A DNA stretch of 32,000 nucleotides from Nitrososphaerota archaeon (GCA_028867785.1 JAGWFS010000002.1:146678-178677), one strand, 5' to 3'. Counted from the stretch's first letter, positions 7,739 through 32,000 are shown. Numbers and translations: made by a program. The notes: a model not told the origin generated them from the sequence alone.

Positions 7739-8227
7739 ATGGAACTCATTCCTGCAGGCCGTCTTGAACTCTTGTCTGAAATGGAAGAAAGATACGAAAA
7801 AAAAGACAAGGAATATTTTGTCAAGCTGCTCAATAATGAGGATTTTGTGATCAGGTGCAGGGCAGTCTGCATACTTGTGGACATGGGTGGAGAGGATGTC
7901 GTTCCGTATATTTCCGGTATTCTGAAGAATGATTCTAATGAGTTGGTAAGACATGAAGCTGCCTTTTCACTTGGCCAGATGTGTCTTCGAAGCGGGATAA
8001 AGCCTCTCGAGGACGCAACGCGCAATGACTCCAGCCTGTTTGTCAGACACGAAGCGGCAGTAGCCCTTGGCGTGATTGGCTCTCAGGATGCAAGAGAGAC
8101 TCTACAAAGAGCACTTCTGGATTCAAGCGAACAGGTAAGGGACTCTGCAGTCGTAGCGCTATCCAACCTGAAATTCATGGAAAGTCTCTGCAAGAACGAA
8201 AAATTTGCAAAACTTACTGGCGGCTAG
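7739..8227 (+). CDS. HEAT-repeat (PBS-lyase-type) protein
   Basis: Repeats VRCRAVCILVDMG, VRHEAAFSLGQM, VRHEAAVALGVIGSQDA and VRDSAVVALSNL. I prefer the ATG at 7739 over the GTG at 7733. Confidence 0.8.
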   Translation: MELIPAGRLELLSEMEERYEKKDKEYFVKLLNNEDFVIRCRAVCILVDMGGEDVVPYISGILKNDSNELVRHEAAFSLGQMCLRSGIKPLEDATRNDSSLFVRHEAAVALGVIGSQDARETLQRALLDSSEQVRDSAVVALSNLKFMESLCKNEKFAKLTGG

Positions 8228-10308: not shown

Positions 10309-11437
10309 CTCCCTTTTTGAATTGAATGTAGTTTTCGTTGATTGCGTGAACTGCTTCCTCCGTGTTGCCCTTTGTGAGAAGCGGCAACAATTCGTTTATT
10401 GCAAAGCTTGCAAGCTCGACAGAGCCCAAGATGTCTCTTGCTATTTTGTGCATCTCTTCTTCTATCTTCGCCGGCCTTTCCATGAATACCGAGCCATTGG
10501 CCTGCTCAGAAGCGATGTGCTTCCAGAAACATCGTAAAGTAATATCTGACAGCTTTGCAATCTGGCCATGGACGAATCCGGATTCGGCCTCTCCTGTTAT
10601 CTTTATCTCAACTATTGGCTTTCTACTGCATGTCTTGATCTTCTCGGAGAGTGCGTTTATCTCGTCTGGGAGATTGTCAATGGATGTCCTGACAGACATT
10701 TGCGGTCTGGTGTCAAGCTTTATCCAGTTTGGAGAAGCTTCTGCACGGGATATGTCCACCTGGTAGAACCCCTTCTGGGTCTCCTTTATTGTCTCACTTG
10801 ATGTCATCTCTATGGAGCCGGGATATGCCAAAGGGCCTCCTAGGTGCGGGTATCTTTTCAGTTCCTGCTCGTGCAGATGGCCCATGGCATAATACGTAAA
10901 GTTTTTTGGAAGTTCAGTGGAATTTATCTCGCCTGCAAACTTGTTTATTTCTGATATTCCTTGATGCAGTACCAGTATCTTGTGCCCTCTGTGATCTCTT
11001 ACCGTTGCATCAGCAGCGGCAAAATCGCTTTCAAACGTATGAATCTCGCTTCGTCTCCGCTTGTCAAAGCCCATGATTAGGACATCCTTGTAAAAAACCG
11101 GCTTGCCTCTTCCGATATATTTTGAAAAATCAAGATTGTGGTATACAAATGGAACCGGTGTAGCCCTTATCCTGCTAATGTCATGCTCTCCCAAGACAAA
11201 AAATGATTCTATGTTGCTCTGTCTTAGCCTCTTTAGTGCATTTGCCAGCGTGACAATTGCCTTGCCGCTTGGGTTTGGCACATGAAAAACGTCTCCTGCA
11301 AATATGACAAAATCCACATGATCTTTTATCGATGTATCTATTGCCTGGTTGAAGGCCAGATAGACGTCCTCTTCGCGCTCCTCTGAGTGGTACTGCAAAA
11401 ATCCAAGATGCGTGTCAGAAATATGTGAAAAGATCAT
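10286..11437 (-). CDS. mre11: DNA double-strand-break repair nuclease Mre11
   Basis: Phosphoesterase motifs HISDTHLG, FAGDVFH, LGEHD and GHLH. The true start is the ATG at 11437 (MIFSHISDTHLG). The 32-aa upstream extension in the ORF track overlaps herA. Confidence 0.95.
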   Translation of the reverse strand: MIFSHISDTHLGFLQYHSEEREEDVYLAFNQAIDTSIKDHVDFVIFAGDVFHVPNPSGKAIVTLANALKRLRQSNIESFFVLGEHDISRIRATPVPFVYHNLDFSKYIGRGKPVFYKDVLIMGFDKRRRSEIHTFESDFAAADATVRDHRGHKILVLHQGISEINKFAGEINSTELPKNFTYYAMGHLHEQELKRYPHLGGPLAYPGSIEMTSSETIKETQKGFYQVDISRAEASPNWIKLDTRPQMSVRTSIDNLPDEINALSEKIKTCSRKPIVEIKITGEAESGFVHGQIAKLSDITLRCFWKHIASEQANGSVFMERPAKIEEEMHKIARDILGSVELASFAINELLPLLTKGNTEEAVHAINENYIQFKKGVGNATVS

Positions 11438-11438
11438 C

Positions 11439-12959
11439 TCAATCAAGCAGCAAGTCTTTCTGTACCAGTCCCTGTGTAGTTTCCTTGGCAATGTCTTTGA
11501 ACTTGTCTGTCTGACTCCATTCTGACACTGCATTCAAGTCCGAGCCTGAGCGTTTGCCCTTTACCTCGTCTATGTGAACTATGGACGGAAGGTTTACCCA
11601 CTGGCCTATGAACAGGGCGTCTCCTATGTTCAAAGACGATAGCTGGGATATGAGGTCCCTGCTTAGTGATTCTGCGGCAGATGCTATCTGTTGCTGGTCG
11701 TCGTCCTGCACAATCTTCATTATGGCAAGCGAGCCCATCTGGCTGAGTACGTTTGGATCTATGTTTCTTGGCCTCTGGGATACGACCCCCAGACCAATTC
11801 CAAACTTGCGCCCTTCTCTTGCCACCTTGGATGCCCAATACTTGGTATCAGTATGCTCTCCCTTTGGTATGAATACGTGTGCCTCTTCTATTATGACAAA
11901 GATTGGGGCAAGAAACTTGTAGCTTCGTCTGTGGGCCGTCTTGCCTTTTCTTTCCCAGACTGACTCTTTTCTCTGCTGTAGCAATTCCTGTAAATAATAT
12001 GACAGTCCGGCATTTGCCTGCCGCTCGCTGAGCTCTGCAATGTTTAGCACGTTTACCCTGCCTTCCTTTATCATGTCTACCGGGTCTCCACAGTCGGGAT
12101 CGAGTATGTCTGAAAACCTGTGTTTTGCATCGTCTATCTTGTCAAGCACCCTGCTTGCGCTGTCAGCATATCCCTTTGTTGTGCGGCCAAATGCGGCAAC
12201 GTTTTCTTCAAGCGACGTCCAAAACTCTTTTGACTGTTTAACCGATTCCGTAAATGATTCCCTGAGAACCCTCTGCTGCTTGTCTGCATTTTCTCGAAGC
12301 TCGATTACCTCGGCAAGCTTGTCCGCTGGCAAGAGCCTTGGATTTATCTTTGCCAGCATATAGTTCATCTTGGAGACATCAAGATTCTCGTAATCATTGT
12401 GATAGTCAAAAATGACAAGCGTGCCGTTCAGAGATGCGACATGTTTTGCTATCAGTGATACGAGATTGCTCTTTCCCATTCCAGTCATTGCAAGTATTGC
12501 CAGGTGTCTTGACACTATCTTGTTGATGTTTATCTTGGCCTCTGTGCTGGTGTTTCTCAGAAGCGAGCCTATTCTAATCCACTCGCTTCCTGACGGGCCA
12601 AATATCATTCCAAGGTCCTGCTGTGTTGCTTCAAGCACGGATGTACCGGGCAGCGGGGGGACTGCGGGAATCAAGACATGGCCCTTTTGCAGCTTGTCCA
12701 AAAATCCCAGTATGCCAATTTTCACCTTGTAATTTTTATCCCTTGAATTAATCTCTGCAACTTCCTTGCTCTCTATTGCCTCGTCAAAGTTTCTGACATC
12801 TGTCAGGGCTTCACTTGATATTGCAGACTTTTCCACAAGGCCCAGAATCTTGCCGTCTTGCGAATCAATGATGACATATTCTCCTACGGAGAGGGGTTTT
12901 GAAGACTGGGCAGTTACCTCGGTTGGCTTTGACTCGCCAATTATCACTCCAATTATCAA
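11439..12959 (-). CDS. herA: HerA hexameric DNA helicase/translocase
   Basis: 506 aa. Walker A AMTGMGKSN, Walker B FVIIEEAH and an N-terminal barrel-like region. Its stop lies 1 nt before the mre11 ATG. Confidence 0.95.
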   Translation of the reverse strand: MIIGVIIGESKPTEVTAQSSKPLSVGEYVIIDSQDGKILGLVEKSAISSEALTDVRNFDEAIESKEVAEINSRDKNYKVKIGILGFLDKLQKGHVLIPAVPPLPGTSVLEATQQDLGMIFGPSGSEWIRIGSLLRNTSTEAKININKIVSRHLAILAMTGMGKSNLVSLIAKHVASLNGTLVIFDYHNDYENLDVSKMNYMLAKINPRLLPADKLAEVIELRENADKQQRVLRESFTESVKQSKEFWTSLEENVAAFGRTTKGYADSASRVLDKIDDAKHRFSDILDPDCGDPVDMIKEGRVNVLNIAELSERQANAGLSYYLQELLQQRKESVWERKGKTAHRRSYKFLAPIFVIIEEAHVFIPKGEHTDTKYWASKVAREGRKFGIGLGVVSQRPRNIDPNVLSQMGSLAIMKIVQDDDQQQIASAAESLSRDLISQLSSLNIGDALFIGQWVNLPSIVHIDEVKGKRSGSDLNAVSEWSQTDKFKDIAKETTQGLVQKDLLLD

Positions 12960-13795
12960 CTCAGTACCTCCCTTGAACCAATCTCGTTTGATAGTCCGTA
13001 CAGGCTGACAAGTCTTGACAGGTCAGAATTTGTTATCTTGCAGTTCTCGTGAGCAAGTTTTAACGCATAAGGATATCCGCCAACGCTGTTCTTTGTCAAC
13101 CTGTCAAGAAGCAGTTTTATCTCATTTTCACTAATGCCGGAGCCGAGCATCTCAATCTTGATGAGTGGCGTAGAGTCCCTGAGTCTTGCATAGACGTATG
13201 AGACAACTTTTCCCGGGCCAAGATCCTTATCCACAAATATCTTGCTAAAGCCAGGCCTTTTCAACGCATGATTATAATAGAATATGTCTCCTGCAACAGA
13301 GCCTAGTTTTTCAAACTGCTTTCTTGCAGATGATGTCTTTGATATGAATACGACATTGTTTCTCTTTTTTATTGCAGACGTAATGGTGTTTCCAAGAGAT
13401 ACCTGTCTTGTAAGAAACTGTGAATAGAGAGAACCGTCAAGTGCCACCAAGTCTGCCTTGTCAACTGAAGCAGCACAGGCGTCAACTTCCATCCTGCTTG
13501 CCTGCGTCTCAAGTTCAGGTGCGGGCTGCCCGAGTCCTTGGTTGTGAGCTTCCGTTATTACCGTGCCGTCTGATTTTACCGATACTCCTGTGACCACCCA
13601 TAGTTCCAACCCCTGAAATTTTGTACTGTTGTAACTGCTATCTATGCCTGCAATGTCTGCATCCTTTTTCTGTGGCTCGTAATCTATCCAGTTTTCTCGC
13701 GCGGTCTGTATTATAAGCTCGAATTTTTCTCCCTTGAAGATGGATCTTGCCTCTTCCCGTTTTTTTATAGCGTCCCGATATACCGTATTGAGCAC
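12956..13795 (-). CDS. nurA: NurA 5'-3' nuclease
   Basis: 279 aa with the GIDSS catalytic-Asp motif and a later ALDGSL motif. Its position next to herA supports the call. GTG start. Its stop overlaps the herA start. Confidence 0.85.
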   Translation of the reverse strand: MLNTVYRDAIKKREEARSIFKGEKFELIIQTARENWIDYEPQKKDADIAGIDSSYNSTKFQGLELWVVTGVSVKSDGTVITEAHNQGLGQPAPELETQASRMEVDACAASVDKADLVALDGSLYSQFLTRQVSLGNTITSAIKKRNNVVFISKTSSARKQFEKLGSVAGDIFYYNHALKRPGFSKIFVDKDLGPGKVVSYVYARLRDSTPLIKIEMLGSGISENEIKLLLDRLTKNSVGGYPYALKLAHENCKITNSDLSRLVSLYGLSNEIGSREVLS

Positions 13796-18067: not shown

Positions 18068-18955
18068 CTATCTGAGATATCTCTTGTACTCCTTGATGTA
18101 TCTCTTGACAAACCATTGCAGAAAGATCCTGTCATTTTCTTTCATCTGTGATCTCTCAAGTGCGTTATAGTAACTGTCTCTATACTCGTATGGAATATCC
18201 AGCATCGGATATTTTTTTTTACCAAGTATGAAATTCATGACAAGCCTTGAAACCCTACCGTTGCCGTCCCCAAATGGGTGTATTGTGACAAATTTCAAAT
18301 GGGCAATTGCCGCCAGCTCAACAGGATGCAGCTTGTTTTTGTTCTTGTTGTACCACTGGAAAAATTCCGTAAGCATTGGGGAGATCTCTATAGGTGACGG
18401 TGGCATGAACTTACTGCCACCTATCTTTACTTGATACTTTCTTGTCTTTCCAGCAATGTCCGGTTTTGTTTTGTTAAAGAGTCTCCAATGCCAATCAAGA
18501 ACTTCCTGCAGAGATATGTCCTTGTTTGATTTTAAGATGTCAAAAAAGAGGTCCCTGTGGCTTTGAGCTTCATACACATCCCTCATCGGCTTGCTCTTTG
18601 GGGTAATGTCCCTTTCCAGGAGGTCGGCAGTTTCTTTATGCGTTAACGTGGAACCTTCTATCCTCTGCGTATCGTAGGTAAAATTTGTTGCAAAGATCTC
18701 GATCTCCTTCTTCCTCACGGATTCCGGCATCCTCTTCTGGTTTTTTGCATAGCTTCTGCTTATCTTGTCAATATCTGCATACCATTTGTTTCTGTATATG
18801 TCGTCAAGCAGCCTTTGTTTTATCTCGTTGATGTTCTTTGGTATTTTTGTACCTAGGTAGATCTCTTTTTTTTGTACCTTGTTGCCTTCTCTTGTACTGT
18901 GCTCAAGATAATGGTATGTCTTTCCATTTACGCTTTTTTTCCTTATCGTTACCAT
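18068..18955 (-). CDS. Fic-domain protein (putative AMPylase) with an in-chain inhibitory helix
   Basis: 295 aa. The canonical Fic motif is HPFGDGNGRVSR. The upstream stretch TQRIEG in YDTQRIEGSTLTHKET matches the (S/T)xxxE(G/N) inhibitory motif. Confidence 0.9.
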   Translation of the reverse strand: MVTIRKKSVNGKTYHYLEHSTREGNKVQKKEIYLGTKIPKNINEIKQRLLDDIYRNKWYADIDKISRSYAKNQKRMPESVRKKEIEIFATNFTYDTQRIEGSTLTHKETADLLERDITPKSKPMRDVYEAQSHRDLFFDILKSNKDISLQEVLDWHWRLFNKTKPDIAGKTRKYQVKIGGSKFMPPSPIEISPMLTEFFQWYNKNKNKLHPVELAAIAHLKFVTIHPFGDGNGRVSRLVMNFILGKKKYPMLDIPYEYRDSYYNALERSQMKENDRIFLQWFVKRYIKEYKRYLR

Positions 18956-22483: not shown

Positions 22484-22825
22484 TTATTTTTCTCCAAACT
22501 TTTGCCAGAGCCTTACTATCTTGTCATCCATTTTGATGCGCTCTATCTTGTATGATATCTTTCCATCCTTGAACCGTATCTCAATCTCGGAAACAAGCCC
22601 CCTGTAATATCTCTCGTCCAGCCCTTCAAGTGTACGCACAACCTTTGTTTTTTTTATCATGTTCATGTACTCTAGGAACTTGATCTTCCTGTATGCGGTA
22701 GAAGCTGGCATACCAAGCTTTGCAGCAATCTCCTGCGTGGTCATCTCGTTGCCTTTTAAAAGTATGATTATCTCTCTGCTGTATCTGTCCCCAAGTACTG
22801 AAAGTATGTCGTCATCGCTTTCCAT
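22484..22825 (-). CDS. ArsR-like winged-helix transcriptional regulator
   Basis: 113 aa. SVLGDRYSREIIILLKGNEMTTQEIAAKLGMPASTAYRKIKFLEYMNMIKK is an HTH plus wing. Confidence 0.8.
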   Translation of the reverse strand: MESDDDILSVLGDRYSREIIILLKGNEMTTQEIAAKLGMPASTAYRKIKFLEYMNMIKKTKVVRTLEGLDERYYRGLVSEIEIRFKDGKISYKIERIKMDDKIVRLWQKFGEK

Positions 22826-22826
22826 T

Positions 22827-23099
22827 TCAGCTTTTCTTGACTGCCAGAATAAGCACTAGGAACCCCGCTATCTCAAACCCCTCTTCAATGATTTTTTGCA
22901 AGTCCTCGCTTTGAAGGAAGGAAAAGGTGTCTTCGATAACTGTCTCACCTATGATTAGAAGCGTGAATCCTATCACCAGTAGCAGCATGGGCGGATATCT
23001 TGTCCTCTTAAACGCCCTTGCGGCAAAAAATACAAGCAAAAACCCGACTATCAGATGTGCTGCCAGCAGAACATAGTGAGTAGTGGATGGATCTAACAT
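22827..23099 (-). CDS. Small three-TM membrane protein co-oriented with the wHTH regulator
   Basis: 90 aa. Its stop lies 1 nt before the wHTH start, so the two are likely co-translated. Confidence 0.7.
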   Translation of the reverse strand: MLDPSTTHYVLLAAHLIVGFLLVFFAARAFKRTRYPPMLLLVIGFTLLIIGETVIEDTFSFLQSEDLQKIIEEGFEIAGFLVLILAVKKS

Positions 23100-23980: not shown

Positions 23981-24097
23981 TTTGTCTGATTGTATCCACC
24001 CATATGCGTGCACTTTCTGCAGGACGGATTTTCTTGTTTGCTGGTCTAACTTGACCAACCATCCAGTTTAAAAAAAGCAGACAGGTGGTAAGAGCAG

Positions 24098-24907
24098 TTG
24101 ACACGATACCGTCATGCTATATCATACAGGCTGCGCGAGGTACCGATAAGGCAGATAAAGGTGTGGAGCAGTGCGCAGGCAAGAAAGCTTGACAGGACAG
24201 GAATTGCCGAGCTTGCAAGGTCAATCAGGAGCGAGGGCCTCCAGAACCCACCGATGGTCCAGCAGGACGGCAAGAACTCGTACCTTCTCATGTCGGGCCA
24301 GAGGAGGCTTGCGGCCCTCAAAAGGCTTAGGACAAGAAAGGTTCCTGTCCTTGTCCTGACAAAAAAGACAGCGTACCAACTTCAGGATGCAAAGGCGGCA
24401 TCTGTAATAGAGAACATTCACCGCCGAAACATGAATACAAGGGATGTTGCATCGGCGTGCAGTTTTCTTGCAGCAAGGATTGGCAGGTCAAAGGCCGCCC
24501 AGTCACTTGGCATGTCGGCAATAACGTTCCGCAGGTACCACGGCTTTGCAGGAGTGCCAGAAAGACTGAAGGAACTTGTCCCGAAAAAACTCTCGAGGGA
24601 CCAGGCAACAAGACTTTACACGGCAGTGCCAGATCTTGCACGTGCATTGAGGATTGCAGGGAGGATGTCAAGACTTGACTCATCCTCACGAAGAACATAC
24701 CTTGAATTGTTGTCGCGCAACCCGAACCTGTCACACAAGACCCTGATGAAGAGGCTCAGGCTGCATCACATACAGAAAACCATACTGCTCAAGATCCCAA
24801 AGGGAAAGGCGCACGGTCTTGCCGTGCAGTCAAGGCGTCACGAGATGGAGCCACAGGAATTGGCAGGCAAGATCCTGTCGGACTGGCTCAAGAGAAAGGG
24901 GTACTAG
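24098..24907 (+). CDS. ParB/Srx-domain protein (ParB-like nuclease/CTPase fold plus HTH); no ParA neighbour
   Basis: 269 aa. IRQIKV...R, ELARSIRSEGLQNPPMV and the arginine box LMSGQRRLAALKRL are followed by an HTH-like segment. The start appears to be TTG. By eye the gene is more GC-rich than its neighbours. Confidence 0.85.
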   Translation: MTRYRHAISYRLREVPIRQIKVWSSAQARKLDRTGIAELARSIRSEGLQNPPMVQQDGKNSYLLMSGQRRLAALKRLRTRKVPVLVLTKKTAYQLQDAKAASVIENIHRRNMNTRDVASACSFLAARIGRSKAAQSLGMSAITFRRYHGFAGVPERLKELVPKKLSRDQATRLYTAVPDLARALRIAGRMSRLDSSSRRTYLELLSRNPNLSHKTLMKRLRLHHIQKTILLKIPKGKAHGLAVQSRRHEMEPQELAGKILSDWLKRKGY

Positions 24908-24958
24908 ATACCATTGCACGCCATGATTCCAAAAACCGAGGGAGGGAAATAAGAGAAT

Positions 24959-25171
24959 ATGTCAGCAAGCCCAGTACGATATGCACTAAAGCAAGAAATA
25001 AAGCAAGAACTTGCTGAAGAAATCTACACCGAAACCAAAAAACTGCATAAAGTTACAGATAAAAAAACAAATAAAATGATAAAAAAAATAAAAAAGGCTT
25101 TTGCGTCACAAAAGTCAGGCAGTGCCAAGGCAAAACCCTCAACTCGATCCCCTGCAAATTCAACGAAATAG
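24959..25171 (+). CDS. Lys-rich small hypothetical protein
   Basis: 70-aa ORF with low-complexity basic sequence. The coding status is uncertain. Confidence 0.4.
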   Translation: MSASPVRYALKQEIKQELAEEIYTETKKLHKVTDKKTNKMIKKIKKAFASQKSGSAKAKPSTRSPANSTK

Positions 25172-25186
25172 GCTTCGGTGTAAATC

Positions 25187-25561
25187 TTGGGGTTATTCAA
25201 TAAAAAGAAACTGGCGTTTGAAAAAATAGAACTTTCTAAATCGAAAATAAATTCGGATGAAACTGCAACAATTACAGTTAATATTAAAAACTTTAAGGAA
25301 AAAGTAGATGATATCTCAGTAGTAACAAAGACTGAGGATGCAAGTAATCAGTATTTGACTATCAACAAACCCTCTCTTAGGCTTCCTTCTCTAGTTTTCC
25401 CAAATAGTAATACCGGAGATCAAGAGATTACAATAAATCCTTACAATATTCCTATTCATAAAATGGAATTTAAGATAAGTATTGAAGTATACACAGATAG
25501 TTCTAAAAAACTAATGCTCAAAAAAGATTTTAATTTAACTGTAAACAAAAAAAAGATGTAG
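25187..25561 (+). CDS. Hypothetical protein, probably beta-rich, in a strongly AT-rich region
   Basis: 124 aa with alternating polar/hydrophobic strands (ATITVNIKN, EFKISIEVY). TTG start directly after a stop. Confidence 0.5.
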   Translation: MGLFNKKKLAFEKIELSKSKINSDETATITVNIKNFKEKVDDISVVTKTEDASNQYLTINKPSLRLPSLVFPNSNTGDQEITINPYNIPIHKMEFKISIEVYTDSSKKLMLKKDFNLTVNKKKM

Positions 25562-25648
25562 GACCCACTAAGAGATTTTTATTTTCAGTTCAACGCACAA
25601 CGAATTTTTTAGATTTTAAAAAATTAGGTTCAAAGTTTAAATAATAAA

Positions 25649-25738
25649 ATCTGAACGAGACGAGCTCAAAGGGCTAGAGGTTGTCGACGGCAGCCGTATC
25701 TTTCTACTCCAGCATGGGTTCGAGTCCTAAGAGTTCTG
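25649..25738 (+). other. tRNA-like remnant (D-arm-like and T-arm-like elements without a canonical cloverleaf)
   Basis: ATGGG-TTCGAGT-CCTAA at 25713-25729 fits the T-arm consensus (GG-TTCGAnT-CC, 4 of 5 stem pairs). GCTC-AAAGGGCTA-GAGG at 25663-25679 is D-arm-like, with A14, GG and A21 equivalents. I could not build an acceptor or anticodon stem. Confidence 0.25.
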
Positions 25739-25769
25739 ACAGATCTGTAATGGACATAGCCACAATTTT

Positions 25770-26882
25770 TTATCTGAATTTAATTCTGTAAAAAATAATC
25801 AGGAAGAAAAGGCTGATTATTAAAATTGGAATTGCAAATGGAAATTCCGGTACAGATGCAGGAAGTACCTTTATGATTCCAAGCGTGTTTGAGCCGTGGT
25901 CCACAAACAGAATGTCTCCGTCCGAGTCACTTGTCAGCCACTGAACCAATGAACCCTGCGGCAGGTCGAATAGTTTTATTTCCCCTGTTGCTGTATCAGT
26001 TGCTGCAATCCTGTCAAGAGTATGCTGCGATACCCACAGGTTGTCATAGTTGTCAAAAGTCAGACCTGCTGGAAAACCGCCAAAGTCCATGTTGTATCTT
26101 TTGAATGTCTTGGCTACCGGGTCAAACTGTGAAACTGTGTACGCATTGTGTTCCGAGAAATAGACCTTTCCTGTAACTGGATCAGACAATATGCTGACAG
26201 GAACGTCAAACGTAAGCCGGGCCGGGCCAAACTCGGTGATATCGTGATTGGCAGGATCAATGCTTGCTATTTTCCCCAAACTTTCGGCTATCCACACCCT
26301 GCCGTACTTGTCAGACGTAATTGCAAGTGGAAAAGAACTTGTTGGCGGAAGATTGACTGCATTGAACTTGTCTACCTTGGTGTCAAATTCCAATATGGTG
26401 TTTTGATCAGGAATGGCAATCCAGACATTGTCCAGATCATCTAGGGCTATTCCTGACGATGTCTCGTTACTGGGAATTGGATAGATTCTGTTTGAGCCGT
26501 CATCTGGATTGAATTCACCAAGGGAGTTTATGCCTGGGTCGGCATACCATAGGCGGCCTTTTGAATCCATCGCAATGTGAGTCACAAAATCGACTCCCGG
26601 CAGGCTTCGTATTACGAATCTACTAGAGTTCAATTCAAATTCCAGTATCTTGCTGCTGTTAGCCGTGATATCGCCGGTCCATATTGCATTTCTGTGATTG
26701 TCGTAGAATAGAAATGGTGACAGCCTTGTCTTTTCTGGAGGGTTGATCTCTGTTATGTTTATAGCTAATTGGTCTAGGCTTGATGAATCAGAGCTGGCTT
26801 CAAATGAATCTCGAATCCCGGCCATGCTTGAAAGAAAAAAGATGGCAAACACTATCAAAAAAATTTGAAGCAACTTTATCAC
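25770..26882 (-). CDS. Secreted beta-propeller protein (Vgb/streptogramin-lyase-like repeats) with a PEF-CTERM archaeal sorting signal
   Basis: 370 aa with an N-terminal signal peptide and repeats such as GRVWIAESLGKIASIDPANHDITEF and GRLWYADPGINSLGEF. The C-terminus is VPEFPFAIPILIISLFFLIIFYRIKFR (PEF, then a TM segment, then basic residues). Confidence 0.85.
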   Translation of the reverse strand: MIKLLQIFLIVFAIFFLSSMAGIRDSFEASSDSSSLDQLAINITEINPPEKTRLSPFLFYDNHRNAIWTGDITANSSKILEFELNSSRFVIRSLPGVDFVTHIAMDSKGRLWYADPGINSLGEFNPDDGSNRIYPIPSNETSSGIALDDLDNVWIAIPDQNTILEFDTKVDKFNAVNLPPTSSFPLAITSDKYGRVWIAESLGKIASIDPANHDITEFGPARLTFDVPVSILSDPVTGKVYFSEHNAYTVSQFDPVAKTFKRYNMDFGGFPAGLTFDNYDNLWVSQHTLDRIAATDTATGEIKLFDLPQGSLVQWLTSDSDGDILFVDHGSNTLGIIKVLPASVPEFPFAIPILIISLFFLIIFYRIKFR

Positions 26883-26904: not shown

Positions 26905-27441
26905 TTATTTGCCGATTATGCCAATGTCCTCATGATTGTTCATCATTGACATCATAGACCTTCCTGCCGGGATCACGTGGGTGTGCATTGTATAGTATCC
27001 TTTTTCTGGCAGATCAAACTGCACTAGATATTTTCCTGAACCAATGTTTTCTGCGCTGAACATGGGTCCTATCATGTCCATTGTGCTCATAGGTGACCCT
27101 CTTTCAATTCCTACTATTACCTGTGCGTTGGTCAGGGGCTCCTTGGTTTCCTTGTCCGATACCAGAAGAGTGATGGACTGTTCTTTGCCTGCAGATACCA
27201 CCTGGCTGGAACTGGTCTTGATTATGACATCTTGTGGTACATCACTCATTGAATTGCGATTCATTGTAGAGCCTGAGTTCATCGAGCCCCAGCTCATCAT
27301 CCCGCCCATCATGGAGCCCATGCTACCAGAATCCATCATGGAATACGCTTCTATATTGTTCTGTGATGCGACATAGACAATGGCGCCTGCTGCGGCAAAT
27401 ACTCCCAAGGCAGTAATTAATACCATTACAAGTTTTCTCAT
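26905..27441 (-). CDS. Secreted Met-rich protein with an Ig-like (FixH/YtkA-like) C-terminal domain; putative Cu(I) binder
   Basis: 178 aa with a signal/TM segment followed by MMDSGSMGSMMGGMMSWGSMNSGSTMNRNSM, and a C-terminal HTHVIPAGRSMMSMMNNH. It ends 22 nt upstream of the beta-propeller gene on the same strand. Confidence 0.75.
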   Translation of the reverse strand: MRKLVMVLITALGVFAAAGAIVYVASQNNIEAYSMMDSGSMGSMMGGMMSWGSMNSGSTMNRNSMSDVPQDVIIKTSSSQVVSAGKEQSITLLVSDKETKEPLTNAQVIVGIERGSPMSTMDMIGPMFSAENIGSGKYLVQFDLPEKGYYTMHTHVIPAGRSMMSMMNNHEDIGIIGK

Positions 27442-27485
27442 TCTGACGATCTTTCATAGTCATGTCAGATATATGAATCCGATAT

Positions 27486-27499
27486 TTTACAAATGTAAA
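27486..27499. promoter_or_regulatory. Dyad site 1, TTTACAAATGTAAA, in the divergent Met-rich / YHS promoter
   Basis: A perfect 6+2+6 palindrome. TATA-like boxes lie 7 nt away on both sides: ctttatctatc toward YHS and attcatatatc toward the Met-rich gene. Confidence 0.6.
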
Positions 27500-27538
27500 G
27501 TACTCGCTTTATCTATCACTTTTTCGTCTATCTGTACC

Positions 27539-27676
27539 ATGGCTAGAGATCCAGTATGCGAAATGGAAGTAGACGAAAAGAGTGCACCGTCATCAAAACA
27601 CGGAGGTCAGACCTACTACTTTTGCTGCCCATCTTGCAAAGGCGAGTTTGAGAAGAATCCTACCAAGTATGCTTGA
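27539..27676 (+). CDS. YHS-domain metal-binding protein
   Basis: An internal ATG of ORF 27380..27676 gives MARDPVCEMEVDEKSAPSSKHGGQTYYFCCPSCKGEFEKNPTKYA (45 aa). This matches the YHS pattern DPVC.M.V...YYFC...C...F. Confidence 0.85.
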   Translation: MARDPVCEMEVDEKSAPSSKHGGQTYYFCCPSCKGEFEKNPTKYA

Positions 27677-27781
27677 GCGTATCTCTTTCCCAGCAGGCAA
27701 AAGTAGTGAGCTTAGAGGGATTTGTTTTATGAATCTATTACTGGACTAGCCAAAAATAAATGTAGAATGCTTATCGCAATA

Positions 27782-28270
27782 CTATTTTGTAGTAATAGAT
27801 AATATTATTTTGTCATCAGGTTCGAGGATATGATTTTTGTAATCTGATACTGGCTGACCGTTGACTGTCATGGTTACTTGCTTGTAGCCATCCAGATTCA
27901 TCCCCCATATGCTAAGAAACTCGCCAAAGGTATAGTATCGGTTTGCATAAGACTCTACATGGATGGTGCCAGAAGTATCATGGGTGTGCAACGGGGCCAT
28001 ACCCTGCATGCCATACGAATCAAGCGAGTGATCATTCCACAAGGCAGGATCTATTCCTATCTGTGCGGGCACTGTAGCCTGCTTGCCATCCGCTACAAAT
28101 GTAAGCTGTGGATGAAAGTGCATCATGCCCATAGAGTCCATTGGAGGGTTAGAGTAGGCATTACCGGTCAGGGTTTTTGTTGGTTGCTGTGTCATCACTA
28201 CTGCGACCCCGACAGCTATTGCTATTGCCACGCCTATTGCAATTAATTTAGGCTTCTTTGATCTTGTCAT
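27782..28270 (-). CDS. Membrane-anchored secreted protein with HFH / HTHD / H motifs; putative metal-binding
   Basis: I prefer the ATG at 28270 (MTRSKKPKLIAIGVAIAIAVGVAVV...). The GTG at 28324 lies upstream of the TSS predicted from the TATA-like box at about 28346. Conserved-looking blocks are MMHFHPQL, VPAQIGID, PLHTHDTSGTIHVES and TFGEFLSIWG. Confidence 0.75.
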   Translation of the reverse strand: MTRSKKPKLIAIGVAIAIAVGVAVVMTQQPTKTLTGNAYSNPPMDSMGMMHFHPQLTFVADGKQATVPAQIGIDPALWNDHSLDSYGMQGMAPLHTHDTSGTIHVESYANRYYTFGEFLSIWGMNLDGYKQVTMTVNGQPVSDYKNHILEPDDKIILSITTK

Positions 28271-28353
28271 GTTCTCTGAATTCTTGTCTTGTTTTATCTT
28301 CTCTGACCTCTCTTCAAGTGTCACTTGTTATGAGGGATATAAAATATCAGCAG

Positions 28354-28367
28354 TTTACAATTGTAAA
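28354..28367. promoter_or_regulatory. Dyad site 2, TTTACAATTGTAAA, upstream of the His-motif secreted protein gene
   Basis: A perfect palindrome. On the minus strand it is followed after 7 nt by tattttatatcc. Confidence 0.6.
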
Positions 28368-28393
28368 ATCTAAACAGCAGGTAACGCGAAAAA

Positions 28394-28606
28394 CTATCCT
28401 TGTAGAATGAACATACATTCCTGATTGTCACACTTCCAAAGCATTGACGGCGTAGATTTTTCTCCAAACTTGATTCCTTTTGTAGAATAATGAAGCTCTA
28501 TTCTGCCTTTCTTACAATGCGGGCAAAGATCTCCTATTCTGATTTGATCGTGATTTAAGATATTTGGGTATTGAAGATCAGCATTATCCTGTGAATTTAA
28601 CAGCAA
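28394..28606 (-). CDS. Small zinc-ribbon protein
   Basis: 70 aa with CPHC...CDNQEC. Its TTG start overlaps the last codons and stop of the upstream TRASH-like ORF (TGTTGCTGTTAA), which suggests translational coupling. Confidence 0.6.
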   Translation of the reverse strand: MLLNSQDNADLQYPNILNHDQIRIGDLCPHCKKGRIELHYSTKGIKFGEKSTPSMLWKCDNQECMFILQG

Positions 28607-28770
28607 CAGCCGCCGCCCCGATCCTTGTCTTCCTGCTGCCTTGTCATTTGTGCATCTGCATATTTTTGCGCATGTTCATCTGAGCAGAAATACTTGCCAA
28701 AACTCTTGATGCTGGATTCCTTTTTGACATCCATTCCACAGATGGTACAATGTTTTGTTGATCCGAACAC
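28597..28770 (-). CDS. TRASH/YHS-like small metal-binding protein with a C-terminal GGGCCC tail
   Basis: Not in the ORF track. My translation from the GTG at 28770, which follows an in-frame TAA two codons upstream, is (M)FGSTKHCTICGMDVKKESSIKSFGKYFCSDEHAQKYADAQMTRQQEDKDRGGGCCC (57 aa). It shows the pattern C-x2-C-G-M-x-V...YFCS-x2-H. Confidence 0.65.
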   Translation of the reverse strand: MFGSTKHCTICGMDVKKESSIKSFGKYFCSDEHAQKYADAQMTRQQEDKDRGGGCCC

Positions 28771-28807
28771 GTTTTACGTGGAAATTGATGATATTTTAAT
28801 ACCATAG

Positions 28808-28821
28808 TTTACAAGTGTAAA
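28808..28821. promoter_or_regulatory. Dyad site 3, TTTACAAGTGTAAA, between the divergent TRASH genes
   Basis: Perfect half-sites. On the minus strand it is followed after 7 nt by attaaaatatcatc, then by the GTG at 28770. Confidence 0.6.
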
Positions 28822-28911
28822 AAAATCAGTTGTGCTTTCTCTTAGGCGACCATCTCTTCATGGCAAGCAGCGATATGAAAAGCTGGTTGGCATAGGACTG
28901 ATCAAGGGGTA

Positions 28912-29187
28912 ATGCCCGTCATTGACCTTGGCATGATCGAGAACAAGACAAGTGAAAAGCTGGACCAGTTAAGGCTCAAGACAATCAGGCATCATGATAT
29001 CAAGATAAGCAAGGATATGATAGTAAAGATGGTATGCGGCTATTGCAAGGGCCCAGTACACGACAAGCCGCATATGCTAAAGATAGCAAATCTTGAAAGA
29101 TCCTCCTGCTGTACATCATGCAGATCGCTATACAAGGAAAAGTACAAGGGGAGGATTGACTCGCTTGCAAGTAGAAACAATTTCTGA
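28912..29187 (+). CDS. TRASH-domain protein with a short N-terminal beta-alpha-alpha (possibly ribbon-helix-helix) region; candidate metal-sensing regulator
   Basis: 91 aa. CGYCKGPV-x16-CCTSC fits TRASH (C-x2-C-x20-C-x3-C). The N-terminal 40 aa (PVIDLGMIENKTSEKLDQLRLKTIRHHDIKISKDMIVKMV) has a strand-helix-helix pattern. The RHH assignment is an inference. Confidence 0.75.
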   Translation: MPVIDLGMIENKTSEKLDQLRLKTIRHHDIKISKDMIVKMVCGYCKGPVHDKPHMLKIANLERSSCCTSCRSLYKEKYKGRIDSLASRNNF

Positions 29188-29195
29188 GAGGTTTG

Positions 29196-29771
29196 TCATA
29201 ATGGTGGGATCAGCCAATGCAATATTTCTGGAGATGGAATGCCAAGACCGTAGATTATCAATGGTATTGCCGTACTAGTAAGAAGTATTCCTGCTACTAG
29301 TCTTGTCATTCTCAAGGGAATTTTCTTTACAACTCCTCCTCGTAACAAACCTATCAGCAAGCCTATCGCAATAAAGAATCCGATCAACGCACTTGTTACC
29401 TCAATTAGACTAAAGGTAGCTAATGCAACAGAATTTTCTACGGCCTCTAGTATGGCTATGTAAAAGTATGTTACTTTGTATTTTGAGATGTCTTCTTTGG
29501 TTTCATTTTCAAAGAACTCCTTGAACATTGTTCCACTGAAAAATAATAATCCTGCACCCAGGGCAATCTCAAGCGGCTTTGTAGGTACAAACCCTGCTAC
29601 TTTAAGAAAGACAAAGTAAAGAATTACTCCCATTATCAAACCAAGAATTGTTATCTTGATCGTCTGTCGCAGTCCGATTCTACTTGCAGTTCCTATGCCT
29701 ACAAGAACCTGTTCTCCTCCCTCTACAAAGATGTACTTGAACGATGTGAAAAATACGATTAATTCAAACAT
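29196..29771 (-). CDS. Six-TM membrane protein with two E-x-x-E motifs (distantly GDT1/UPF0016-like); possible cation transporter
   Basis: I prefer the ATG at 29771 (MFELIVFF...) over the TTG at 29828. Two halves carry FVEGGEQV and ILEAVENSV at equivalent positions. The family assignment is tentative. Confidence 0.7.
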   Translation of the reverse strand: MFELIVFFTSFKYIFVEGGEQVLVGIGTASRIGLRQTIKITILGLIMGVILYFVFLKVAGFVPTKPLEIALGAGLLFFSGTMFKEFFENETKEDISKYKVTYFYIAILEAVENSVALATFSLIEVTSALIGFFIAIGLLIGLLRGGVVKKIPLRMTRLVAGILLTSTAIPLIIYGLGIPSPEILHWLIPPL

Positions 29772-29890
29772 TGCTTGGTTAGCAATTGTTCTTAATATTA
29801 ACAGTCGATTCCGCTGATAGAAATTCAAAGCTACTGCAAAAAAATCTCATGGCATATGATTTTAATAGTAAAATGTTCAATGTATAATCC

Positions 29891-30568
29891 ATGAAATGTG
29901 CTGACTGTCAATGCGTTCCAGAACTGTGCAGCAAGCAGTACTTGGCAGATTGCAAATTTTGTGTCAAGGATGACTGTTGCTGTGTAGAAATTCACCTCAA
30001 CGGCAACAAGGCTACTATTGTGAAATTTTTTTGGAATGCAAAGAACATGTATGCGTCTGCACTTGCAATTGAGATCCTATGCATAATGTCGGCGGAGATT
30101 GGCCAGAACAGCAGCTTCTTTTTGTTCGGATACAAAAGTCCGTTTGGAGTTGCCATGTCATACATCTTGGGTTACGGTCTGGCAGGATTTACAACGTTTG
30201 TAACTATACTTGGAAGATACAACCTGGAACGTGTTATGGATGGGTGCTGTTCTGTCTTGGAGAATGAAAATGATGGATTTGTCTCTAGCCTCAAAATCAC
30301 TTTGAAAAACTTTGCAATTGGAATTGAGAAAATCCCTCAGATATACAAAATGCCAGACTTTAGGCAGATAATGAGATCAGGCCTTTGTGTCTTGATTACA
30401 GGCGAGAGTGTCTGCATTCTGACTGCAGAGACCGTTAATCTTGCGTTCTTTAGACATGCCTTGTGGTTGTCAATACCGTTATCATTACTTGCTGGTGCCT
30501 TTGCAATCACAATAATGGAGGCCTATAGAAAAACCAAAACCCAGACCACGCTAAAATGCTGTAACTAA
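29891..30568 (+). CDS. Membrane protein with an extremely Cys-rich N-terminus and a C-terminal KCCN
   Basis: 225 aa. MKCADCQCVPELCSKQYLADCKFCVKDDCCCVE has 11 Cys in 32 residues. At least 4 TM segments follow. The protein ends in LKCCN. Confidence 0.7.
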   Translation: MKCADCQCVPELCSKQYLADCKFCVKDDCCCVEIHLNGNKATIVKFFWNAKNMYASALAIEILCIMSAEIGQNSSFFLFGYKSPFGVAMSYILGYGLAGFTTFVTILGRYNLERVMDGCCSVLENENDGFVSSLKITLKNFAIGIEKIPQIYKMPDFRQIMRSGLCVLITGESVCILTAETVNLAFFRHALWLSIPLSLLAGAFAITIMEAYRKTKTQTTLKCCN

Positions 30569-30600
30569 TGCATAAATAATTTCGTATTACATATGGTACC

Positions 30601-30996
30601 ATGTCTGATGACATTGCTGTAGACGAACTAGAAAATATGCGAAAAATGATGCAGTCTTACATAGGCGAATTTGACGAAATCGACGGTAAAATTTCCAATC
30701 TAGTAAAAAATTCCATGACCAAGACAAAAGGTATACTCGAAGAATATCCGGAGGAGACCCAAAAATCCATACTCGACGGGCGCGACAAAGCCATGTCCAT
30801 AGGATTCATTGCCATATCAACAATGGCACTCATCATCAGAAGATTCCGAACTGCGTCAAAGCTGGTTGATCTGTTTATTCAATTGATCAACCGTTTTGTT
30901 TCCCTTATTACAAGACATGAAAAACTTTTCAAGATAGACTCTGTCCAGGTTACAATAAGCCTGACGCCTTCCGTAGTAATAACATTCAAACCGTAA
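30601..30996 (+). CDS. Hypothetical protein with one central TM segment
   Basis: 131-aa ORF with an acidic helical N-terminus and the TM segment MSIGFIAISTMALII. I recognise no family. Confidence 0.55.
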   Translation: MSDDIAVDELENMRKMMQSYIGEFDEIDGKISNLVKNSMTKTKGILEEYPEETQKSILDGRDKAMSIGFIAISTMALIIRRFRTASKLVDLFIQLINRFVSLITRHEKLFKIDSVQVTISLTPSVVITFKP

Positions 30997-31054
30997 AAAT
31001 CTTCTGATGCGATTTTGCACAAGCATTATTAACGAGTAAAAGACAGCATAGCTT

Positions 31055-31282
31055 ATGATGTCATGCGGCACTGGAAGAATTTCAAAGAAGAAAATTGCAG
31101 TCTTCTCAGGGGCCGGTGCTGGGGCAGCGGCAGTCTTTTACCTTGCATTTGCGACTCACAACCCCACCATTGCAGCAGTGGCGCCGACGTTTCTGACGCT
31201 CGGTCTGTGTCCTGCAATGTGTGCTACCATGGGAGGCGCCATGTGGTTTGGCAACAAGTTTTCAAAGAAAAAGAAAACCTAG
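31055..31282 (+). CDS. Small two-TM protein with SCG and CPAMC motifs
   Basis: 75 aa with MMSCGTG, GLCPAMCATMGG and Lys-rich ends. Confidence 0.55.
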   Translation: MMSCGTGRISKKKIAVFSGAGAGAAAVFYLAFATHNPTIAAVAPTFLTLGLCPAMCATMGGAMWFGNKFSKKKKT

Positions 31283-31286
31283 TTTT

Positions 31287-31300
31287 TTTACAAATGTAAA
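31287..31300. promoter_or_regulatory. Dyad site 4, TTTACAAATGTAAA, upstream of the rhodanese gene
   Basis: A perfect palindrome followed after 7 nt by attaaaatatcatc. The ATG at 31339 lies 39 nt downstream of the dyad. Confidence 0.6.
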
Positions 31301-31338
31301 GGTCTGCATTAAAATATCATCTGTGCCTAGGTAAAAGT

Positions 31339-32000
31339 ATGACATATGCACATCCTGAGGTTTTAATTGATACAGAAACAGTTTCTAAAAATCTAGACAA
31401 CAAGGCAATAAAGATAGTGGAGGTAGACTATGATCCAGAAAATGCATATCGCCAAGGCCACATCCAAAACGCATCTCTGATCTGGTGGAAGCGAGATATC
31501 AATGACCCAGTCACTCGAGATGTTGTATCTAAATCTCAATTTGAAGAATTGATGTCTAAAAACGGAATATCTACTGGCTCAGAGGTCATCCTTTACGGAG
31601 ACTTCAACAACTGGTTTGCCGCCTTTGTTTTCTGGATATTCAAATACTATGGGCATGAGAAGGTGAAGATAATGAATGGTGGAAGGAAGAAGTGGGAGAT
31701 TGAGAAACGACCATATGCAAAGGAAGAATTGCAGATTCAAAGAACAAGGTACGTTTCACAACCTCCAAACGAAGGAGTAAGGGCTTATCTCTTTGACGTA
31801 AGGCGCGCACTTGAGAAGAAAGACTCTGTACTGGTAGATGTCCGATCACCCAAAGAATTCACAGGCGAGATCACTGCACCGCCTGAATATCCTATGGAAA
31901 ATGCCCAGAGAGGAGGACACATTCCAAGTGCAAATAACATTCCGTGGGCCACTGCCGTAAATGACACAGACGGAACTTTCAAGGTGGTAGACGAGTTAAA
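31339..32000 (+). CDS. Two-domain rhodanese (thiosulfate/3-mercaptopyruvate sulfurtransferase-like); 3' end outside the window
   Basis: Not in the ORF track because there is no stop in the window. My translation is MTYAHPEVLIDTETVSKNLDNKAIKIVEVDYDPENAYRQGHIQNASLIWW...VILYGDFNNWFAAFVFWIFKYYGHEKVKIMNGGRKKW...VLVDVRSPKEFTGE...RGGHIPSANNIPW. The frame is open to 32000. Confidence 0.9.
   Translation, partial: MTYAHPEVLIDTETVSKNLDNKAIKIVEVDYDPENAYRQGHIQNASLIWWKRDINDPVTRDVVSKSQFEELMSKNGISTGSEVILYGDFNNWFAAFVFWIFKYYGHEKVKIMNGGRKKWEIEKRPYAKEELQIQRTRYVSQPPNEGVRAYLFDVRRALEKKDSVLVDVRSPKEFTGEITAPPEYPMENAQRGGHIPSANNIPWATAVNDTDGTFKVVDEL

Follow-up and report, generated by a model that had tools for sequence, protein, structure and literature searches.

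In Pyrococcus furiosus, the copper regulator CopR (PF0739) recognizes a motif revealed by chromatin immunoprecipitation sequencing (ChIP-seq), TTNNCAWWWTGNNAA, which is located directly upstream of the transcription factor B (TFB) recognition element (BRE) and between the divergent copR and copA genes, the latter being activated by CopR (Grünberger et al. 2021, PMC7830388). A short palindrome is also known from Firmicutes, where the cop box of CopY reads TACAnnTGTA, refined to RNYKACANNTGTMRNY (O'Brien et al. 2020, PMC7253601). For the ammonia-oxidizing archaea (AOA), two copper-limitation motifs have been published for Nitrososphaera viennensis (TTCSGSMTTTGWACYANT and RATTTAAABATAGATTTAAATAATAAS), and, according to the transcriptomic study concerned, Cop gene regulation in this soil organism "remains an open question" (Reyes et al. 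2020, PMC7785015). Here, we describe a 32-kb stretch of DNA from a Nitrososphaerota archaeon (JAGWFS010000002.1:146678-178677; hereafter, the window) that carries four copies of a perfect dyad, TTTACA-WW-TGTAAA, and we propose that this dyad is, with good probability, the operator of the thaumarchaeal CopR/CopT, that is, of a regulator combining an Lrp/AsnC-type helix-turn-helix (HTH) domain with a copper-sensing TRASH domain. An initial annotation of the same DNA, which had noticed the dyad, stated that no archaeal regulon with this operator had been described; given the P. furiosus motif directly upstream of the BRE, this was overstated, and the system is a thaumarchaeal member of the known archaeal CopR/cop system as opposed to a new kind of regulon. 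Novel features are the precise sequence of the operator and its even, 14-bp symmetry, the small size of the regulator, the set of genes in the regulon, and the compact arrangement of two promoters on one dyad; an earlier description of the dyad operator in AOA was not found in the open-access literature searched.

The pattern TTTACANNTGTAAA has four exact matches in the window, with starts at 27486, 28354, 28808, and 31287 (all within 3.8 kb), vs. a chance expectation of 0.02, and four or more sites were obtained in 0 of 100 dinucleotide shuffles. No further exact copy exists elsewhere in the 32-kb window. Relaxing the search to two mismatches yields six sites vs. 2.06 expected, which is near chance, and both additional sites (15309 and 25779) fall within coding open reading frames (ORFs), whereas all four exact dyads are intergenic in our ORF map. 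Hence, the positions and perfect form of the dyads reported in the initial annotation, their rarity by chance, and their absence from the other intergenic regions of the window were all reproduced by our pattern scan and ORF map. The four sites are as follows:

27486..27499, dyad 1, TTTACAAATGTAAA, exact match, candidate shared operator in the middle of the 97-nucleotide (nt) divergent spacer between the Met-rich and YHS genes
28354..28367, dyad 2, TTTACAATTGTAAA, exact match, candidate operator of the His-motif gene promoter
28808..28821, dyad 3, TTTACAAGTGTAAA, exact match, candidate operator of the TRASH-57 promoter
31287..31300, dyad 4, TTTACAAATGTAAA, exact match, candidate operator of the rhodanese promoter, beginning 4 nt past the stop codon of a gene for a 75-aa membrane protein

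To place these sites in an evolutionary context, we used an alignment of the His-motif family (A1) to fetch 76 loci (922 kb; L001-L076) from one-genome-per-species archaeal assemblies; four additional loci, i.e., L077 (from the complete genome of Nitrosotenuis sp. DW1) and L078-L080, were fetched by copR alone. Gene calls in the fetched loci are based on our own ORF heuristics, except for L077-L080, and dyad counts refer to the window and the fetched loci rather than to whole genomes. The 76 His-motif-anchored loci hold 76 exact dyads, with five to six in each of the closest relatives, mostly located some 100 nt ahead of the anchor gene; among these loci, no exact dyad was found in those from high-GC Thermoplasmata, Bathyarchaeia, and Nitrososphaera. 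The window and 77 loci together (975 kb) contain 81 exact dyads, where Markov simulations give zero to one, and 50 one-mismatch sites, where the simulations give 4-13. The enrichment is specific to the 2-nt spacer, as the same 975 kb contain zero to one site for each other spacer of 0-8 nt and for the everted arrangement (the 3-nt-spacer dyad does not occur in the loci at all), and the central dinucleotide is nearly always W-W. When L078-L080 are added (about 1 Mb), 86 of 87 exact dyads avoid the long ORFs, which make up 68% of the DNA (P = 3.5e-41). In aligned orthologous promoters, the dyad arms and both TATA boxes do not vary, unlike the rest of the sequence, which drifts: all 48 arm positions of the four window dyads are intact, with flanking DNA that is ~78-84% identical to L001; dyad 1 has invariant arms and variable flanks in the orthologous regions of L001, L005, L003, L056, and L002; and dyad 2 is conserved 79-93 nt upstream of the His-motif orthologues in L001-L012 and L056. 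Enrichment of the dyad at orthologous promoters of relatives, which the initial annotation had named as the check on its proposal, is clear, with nearly all copies intergenic and most of the target gene families linked to a dyad. The specificity, spacing, and conservation of the site and its association with particular genes are direct observations.

The dyads also hold a fixed position relative to the promoter. The boxes on the window flanks that face intact genes, each at +9/+10 to +17 after the dyad, are:

27469-27476, minus strand, TATA-like box of the Met-rich promoter, TCATATAT, +10 to +17 from dyad 1
27509-27516, plus strand, TATA-like box of the YHS promoter, TTATCTAT, +10 to +17 from dyad 1
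28337-28344, minus strand, TATA-like box of the His-motif gene promoter, TTTTATAT
28791-28799, minus strand, TATA box of the TRASH-57 promoter, TTAAAATAT
31309-31317, plus strand, TATA box of the rhodanese promoter, TTAAAATAT

Start codons are located 37-44 nt from the dyad for four of these five genes, the first in-frame ATG of the His-motif gene being at 83 nt. The same geometry is evident in relatives, where 159 dyad flanks show a single strong information peak, TTAAATATC at +10 to +18, the TTAAATAT TATA box starts after a 9-nt gap from the dyad, and the start codons of the flanking genes cluster at +37 to +40. Since 52 dyad-less AOA genes have their AT-rich peak at the same place (-28 to -25 relative to the start codon), we interpret the box as an ordinary TATA box and the mRNAs as mostly leaderless. 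With this leaderless geometry, the TATA box would occupy -29 to -22 relative to the start codon and the dyad about -52 to -39, with the 9 nt of the BRE region between them; in no case does the dyad reach into the TATA box or the start site. On the remaining gene-facing flank, which leads to a 91-aa ORF, there is no TATA box, and the DNA corresponds to the remnant 3' end of a deleted copA gene (see below). The earlier count of five boxes among six flanks at a fixed offset stands for the window and is matched by the 159-flank profile.

The TRASH-57 and rhodanese promoters, previously noted as near-identical modules, are indeed related, forming a 72-nt inverted repeat with 72% complementarity (28772-28843 vs. 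31265-31336). The rhodanese module of the window is closer to the TRASH-57 promoter of L001 than to the rhodanese promoter of L056, which suggests a promoter duplication or capture within the island. Some spacers elsewhere contain two exact dyads 38-44 nt apart (L004, 3757 and 3795; L079, 9909 and 9953), and in L079 these may represent one dyad per divergent promoter, as the copA-copR spacer is longer there (132 nt). An RNA element or hairpin was rejected as an explanation of the dyad: no Rfam family reached threshold in the window, and a 6-bp A/U-rich stem with a 2-nt loop appears implausible. A tRNA integration site marked by the conserved GGCCCGATTC near dyad 3 in relatives was likewise rejected, no tRNA having been found in the window or in L001-L006.

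A pointer to the regulator comes from the relatives, in which the dyad sits in an 86-132-nt spacer between a gene for a CopA-type P1B ATPase, whose N-terminus is an HMA domain or, in Nitrososphaeraceae, a YHS fusion, and a gene for a regulator of about 145 aa. This divergent copA-copR arrangement with the dyad in the spacer was observed in L001, L003, L005, L009, L011-L014, L017, L024, L056, and L076-L080, including all three loci fetched by copR alone that were added last (exact dyad in 3/3 of L078-L080). Counting the His-motif-anchored loci and L077, 21 of the 27 copR-family genes have a dyad with at most one mismatch, in most cases at precisely 38-39 nt before the gene and in common with the divergent copA. 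The dyad-flanking proteins of 145-174 aa match PF13404/PF13412 (HTH_AsnC-type) and PF08394 (Arc_trans_TRASH), an architecture that is also seen in the precomputed Pfam annotation of 240 homologues, and no DNA-binding family other than CopR recurs beside the dyad among the flanking ORFs of the archaeal and the metagenome loci (described below). The RAM domain typical of Lrp/AsnC regulators (PF01037) was not detected at E <= 0.01 in the short AOA CopR proteins (~141-148 aa), for which AlphaFold2 (AF2) predicts the HTH and the TRASH domain with confidence but the linker between them (residues 53-93) with low confidence. Because RAM was not detected, AOA CopR may function as a simple dimer that occupies one strong site. 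A longer AOA form of 208 aa in L028 keeps PF01037, and the dyad with its 2-nt spacer also precedes this gene, at 132 nt from the predicted start. No cultured Nitrososphaera CopT locus was among the best 120 matches of the protein search, which were metagenome proteins throughout.

Under the proposed model, a CopR dimer would bind the 14-bp palindrome abutting the BRE/TATA region, and from a given dyad it would control either a single promoter or a divergent pair. CopR would stay on the DNA, and binding of Cu(I) to its TRASH domain would turn it into an activator that aids the loading of TFB and the TATA-binding protein (TBP). A single dimeric factor just upstream of the BRE/TATA region, as envisaged in the initial annotation, fits the data. 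A position just upstream of the BRE is typical for archaeal activators. It is this position of the dyad that leads us to favor activation as the most likely mode of CopR action, as do the phenotypes of knock-outs in P. furiosus, S. solfataricus, and H. salinarum. The regulon would comprise copper export (CopA), small Cys-rich Cu(I)-binding proteins (YHS, TRASH-57), secreted or membrane-anchored Met-/His-rich proteins, and sulfur/thiol enzymes, the latter represented by rhodanese in the window and by DsbA-like and DsbD-like proteins elsewhere.

The identity of the binding protein, the metal signal, and the sign of regulation are inferred, in part by comparison with described systems. The CopR of P. 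furiosus, like that of AOA, consists of an N-terminal HTH and a C-terminal TRASH domain, and is encoded divergently from copA with the site in between; the half-sites share the pattern TTnnCA...TGnnAA and the position directly upstream of the BRE (9 nt before the TATA box in AOA), with a center that is 1 nt shorter in AOA, and both regulons extend past copA to small metal-binding proteins. However, the content of the AOA regulon differs (YtkA-like, His-motif, rhodanese, DsbA-like, DsbD-like, and BNR-propeller proteins), as does the phylum, and the AOA system is known from sequence alone. Relative to the archaeal cop cluster (copR/copT, copA, copM/copZ) of Saccharolobus, Thermococcus, Ferroplasma, and Halobacterium, the AOA TRASH/YHS proteins appear in place of the CopM chaperone. 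With the archaeal Lrp/AsnC regulators (feast/famine regulatory proteins such as Ss-LrpB, FL11, LysM, and Ptr2), AOA CopR shares the HTH_AsnC-type domain and the AT-centred palindromes, and a site upstream of the BRE is typical for the activating members, but the short AOA protein has a poorly predicted linker and TRASH where Lrp/AsnC proteins have RAM, and its effector is presumably Cu(I) rather than an amino acid.

The likeness to the cop box of CopY is also close, since TACAnnTGTA is present in each of the four window dyads, the dyad agrees with the inner 14 positions of the 16-mer consensus (TTTACAnnTGTAAA fits YKACANNTGTMR), and the cop box controls a copper-exporting P-type ATPase, as the AOA dyad is proposed to do. 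CopY, however, is a winged-helix protein of the BlaI/MecI/CopY family (PF03965) and a repressor acting on sigma-70 promoters, whereas the AOA regulator is of the Lrp-type HTH plus TRASH kind. As the regulator families are unrelated, we read this likeness as convergence, and membership in the CopY/BlaI family was rejected, as PF03965 was not found among the window ORFs scanned against Pfam and does not recur among the dyad-flanking ORFs of the archaeal loci, the sole PF03965 protein found being on a separate metagenome contig (L153). Finally, N. viennensis shares with the system described here the copper-homeostasis theme and several families, namely DsbD, a 'sialidase'/BNR protein, and CopA2 beside CopZ and CopT, with DsbD and a 'sialidase' being among its top copper-limitation genes (PMC7785015); identity of the dyad with the published motifs of this organism was rejected, as the sequences are different.

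The genes behind the window dyads, and those directly downstream of them, are:

25770..26882, minus strand, beta-propeller protein of 370 aa, Vgb_lyase/NHL-like (Pfam), with a C-terminal PEF sorting signal
26905..27441, minus strand, Met-rich, membrane-anchored YtkA-like protein of 178 aa (Pfam PF13115), start codon 44 nt from dyad 1
27539..27676, plus strand, YHS-domain protein of 45 aa (Pfam PF04945), ATG 39 nt after dyad 1
27782..28270, minus strand, His-motif protein of 162 aa from the ATG at 28270, with an N-terminal membrane anchor, function unassigned
28394..28606, minus strand, zinc-ribbon protein of 70 aa, overlapping the end of TRASH-57
28597..28770, minus strand, TRASH-57, a Cys-rich protein of 57 aa belonging to the CopM/TRASH chaperone type, with its GTG start codon at 37 nt from dyad 3
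31339..32000, plus strand, rhodanese (sulfurtransferase, Pfam PF00581), cut by the window end, ATG 38 nt after dyad 4

Considering a dyad with at most one mismatch within 170 nt upstream of a gene, the association in relatives is complete for TRASH-57 (12/12 genes, 31-39 nt upstream in all orthologues) and was also recorded for the Met-rich YtkA-like family (14/15), rhodanese (8/9, at 38-45 nt), YHS (22/26), CopR (21/27), CopA (18/28), and a membrane protein of ~280 aa with CC and CPTC motifs (9/13), with lower fractions for the 75-aa membrane protein (9/17) and the His-motif family (37/89). The 370-aa propeller (0/17) and the 70-aa zinc ribbon (0/5) have no dyad of their own, and operons are suggested for both because each sits directly behind a dyad-linked gene where checked: the propeller gene lies 22 nt downstream of the Met-rich gene in the window, and the same gene order is found in L001, so that the two probably form one operon, and the zinc-ribbon gene directly follows TRASH-57 in the window, L001, L002, L003, and L005, which points to co-transcription with it. 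The YHS mRNA is probably leaderless, given that its ATG sits 39 nt after dyad 1. Hence, the units named in the initial annotation (Met-rich plus propeller, YHS, His-motif, TRASH-57 plus zinc ribbon, and rhodanese) are dyad-linked in relatives, with the propeller and the zinc ribbon belonging by virtue of their presumed operons. The description of these genes as metal/thiol-handling holds as well, copper being the best-supported metal and the thiol theme being real, as DsbA-like and DsbD-like genes carry the dyad in other AOA.

The His-motif protein is identical (100%) to NCBI KGI27_03365 of a thaumarchaeal metagenome-assembled genome, its closest named relative is from Ca. Nitrosotalea sp. TS (82%), and five of its His residues (H51, H53, H95, H97, and H104) are invariant in alignment A1. 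It had no Pfam or NCBIfam match, and its AF2 model (mean confidence, pLDDT, 82) had no significant match in the PDB, only weak ThiS-like (beta-grasp-type) ones. Copper-handling roles for this protein and for the rhodanese are guesses. In L056, the rhodanese is reduced to a 56-aa stub behind an exact dyad (~6131, minus strand), i.e., the gene has decayed beside an intact operator.

As the loci described above had been picked through regulon genes, we also ran an anchor-free scan of metagenomes with the pattern TTTACAWWTGTAAA-N9-WWWWATAT. This returned 120 loci with 154 dyads, of which 40 loci (57 dyads) have copper/thiol neighbors, and every flanking family that recurs at least three times is a copper/thiol family: CopA/YHS (23), CopR (10), YtkA-like (8), BNR propeller (7), DsbA-like (5), DsbD-like (4), His-motif (4), and TRASH-57 (4). 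In other AOA, the dyad precedes genes for BNR/Sortilin-like propellers (~310 aa, HGLG motif; L085, L121, L128, L159, L184, and L186), DsbD-like membrane proteins (~330 aa; L125, L138, and L168), and DsbA-like thioredoxins (L106 and L090).

The window itself departs from this picture at one point, as it lacks ~2.6 kb that are present in L001, L003, L005, and L056, so that copA, the copA/copR operator, and the HTH of copR are gone. What is left is:

28822..28868, minus strand, copA remnant, consisting of the last ~45 nt and the deletion junction (blastn 28821-28868 = L001 9300-9253; three-way alignment)
28861..29187, plus strand, 5'-truncated copR remnant without HTH, of which the 91-aa ORF at 28912-29187 comprises the linker and TRASH domain

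The junction is a microhomology, TGGCAAGC at 28861-28868 (TG(G/T)CAAGC), beyond which the window (28861-29189) matches copR from about codon 38 on. The remnant has a 1-nt deletion in a G-run (28906-28909) just upstream of the 91-aa ORF, and the latter, which corresponds to residues 55-145 of the 145-aa HTH plus TRASH proteins of relatives, has G, S, and S in place of D97, F118, and F119, all three invariant in 28 homologues. No DNA-binding domain was found in this ORF by Pfam or NCBIfam, only weak TRASH matches. The initial annotation had proposed the 91-aa TRASH protein as the regulator, but this was not borne out: although it adjoins dyad 3 and has a TRASH-like domain, it is a decayed copR stump whose HTH part is deleted and whose flank has no TATA box, and it therefore cannot serve as a DNA-binding regulator of the dyads; we consider that role extremely improbable. 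With the local copA-copR pair deleted, the four operators either depend on a copR gene in another part of the genome or have no regulator at all. Such a further gene is plausible because N. viennensis has three CopT genes (PMC7785015) and L030 and L035 have two copR-family genes each. Alternatively, the operators of this particular genome might be orphaned relics, copper control having been lost with the deletion and the remnant showing decay, a scenario that would be compatible with CopR control in the lineage as a whole. The intact arms of all four dyads argue against this, without being decisive as the deletion is undated, and so does the plausibility of a second copR; we regard it as somewhat unlikely for this genome.

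Several observations weigh against CopR as the protein that acts on the dyad. An intact CopR is not encoded in the 32-kb window, which is the part of the genome covered, and six copR-family genes have no dyad, these being probably paralogues of other specificity. The other 80 of the 120 metagenome loci are mostly unrelated single sites in low-GC DNA. Further, the center of the P. furiosus motif is 3 nt vs. 2 nt in AOA (a 14-bp even palindrome), and P. furiosus CopR is an Lrp-like octamer on extended weak sites whereas the AOA sites are single and near-perfect and the common regulator has no detectable RAM. The assignment of CopR to the dyad stands on co-localization and analogy, and the sign of its regulation is disputed within Thermococcales (activator in P. 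furiosus, reported repressor in T. onnurineus). It is conceivable that some other factor, such as an unlinked winged-helix protein or a CopY/BlaI-type repressor, binds the dyad and that CopR is only one of its targets; the fit of the dyad to the inner 14 positions of the bacterial CopY consensus (PMC7253601) would be in line with this, as would a metagenome contig (L153, ~1221) on which a dyad adjoins a true Penicillinase_R/CopY-type gene with a C-terminal CxC...CxC motif, and the presence in the window of a 113-aa winged HTH protein (22484-22825). However, no Penicillinase_R protein was found among the Pfam-scanned window ORFs, none recurs among the dyad-flanking ORFs and family representatives of the archaeal loci, and the 113-aa protein has no homologue in L001-L077, for which reason it was rejected as the regulator. 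With CopR alone recurring as a DNA-binding family beside the dyad, an unrelated factor seems highly unlikely.

The signal and the sign of regulation can be weighed in the same way. A primary signal other than copper, be it another thiophilic metal (Ag, Cd, Hg) or persulfide/thiol stress, would account for the rhodanese, DsbA-like, and DsbD-like genes in the dyad set, but the core of the regulon consists of YHS, TRASH, and YtkA-like proteins together with a CopA-type P1B ATPase whose N-terminus is either HMA or YHS, and the characterized HTH plus TRASH regulators respond to copper. Such a signal is hence quite improbable; copper is the best-supported one because the dyad sits between copA and copR in relatives. 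With the same operator and the same CopR, the protein could alternatively act as a classical repressor that blocks the TFB/BRE contact and is released by Cu(I). CopR of T. onnurineus has been reported as a repressor of copA and of itself, copper releases P. furiosus CopR from DNA in gel shifts, and P. furiosus CopR represses its own promoter (PMC7830388); BRE occlusion would also be sterically possible, as the dyad ends 9 nt before the TATA box. On the other hand, copA is under positive control according to the knock-outs in P. furiosus, S. solfataricus, and H. salinarum, and the dyad, which overlaps neither TATA box nor start site, has an activator-like position. We judge repression to be unlikely, though a credible alternative.

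A more specific version of the CopR hypothesis, which we put forward tentatively and would not yet expect to hold in every part, is that a minimal, RAM-less dimeric CopR of ~145 aa acts on a single palindrome between back-to-back leaderless promoters, controlling through a CopY-convergent operator a regulon that joins copper export to extracytoplasmic Met- and His-rich proteins of unassigned function and to sulfur/thiol enzymes, and that the lineage of the window has kept its four operators intact after losing copA and copR. If so, this would be among the most compact bidirectional metal switches known in archaea, AOA would handle copper partly via sulfane-sulfur or disulfide chemistry, and the four operators would have to be controlled by a paralogue acting in trans or else belong to a regulon that was orphaned recently. 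More generally, AOA depend heavily on copper enzymes, and the operator TTTACAWWTGTAAA 9 nt before the TATA box predicts the regulator and lets the regulon be read from AOA genomes and metagenomes. It also nominates copper-handling families, i.e., the His-motif, YtkA-like Met-rich, CC/CPTC membrane, BNR propeller, and rhodanese proteins. The dyad promoters may represent a natural compact copper-responsive module for a group without genetic tools, and the proposed system would bring a second archaeal phylum, with a simpler regulator, under the CopR model developed in P. furiosus.

The remainder of the window includes a few features of note. Between the copR remnant and dyad 4 (29196-31282), the genes, which encode a 210-aa membrane, a 225-aa Cys-rich membrane, a 131-aa, and a 75-aa membrane protein, vary in presence and location across L001, L005, L056, and L006; judging from these gene orders, the copper island is a mosaic. 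The 14-mer CTTAATATTAACAG occurs three times in the 975 kb (window 29791-29804, L030 8616, and L035 1410), upstream of the Cys-rich membrane-protein gene in the window and ~28 nt upstream of the dyad-less copR paralogues in L030 and L035, and could mark the site, or the promoter, of a second regulator. Within 24000-26000, a kilobase of 51% GC with a gene for a ParB_N-domain protein (24098-24907) is followed by 34.6% GC at 25001-26000; the ParB gene, a winged HTH/DUF7521 gene pair (22484-23099), and a 124-aa ORF (25187-25561) have no homologue in L001-L077, and this region is possibly foreign DNA. A complete NurA-HerA-Mre11-Rad50 repair cluster (8224-13795) and a Fic/DOC-family gene (18068-18955) represent ordinary archaeal content that is unrelated to the dyads.

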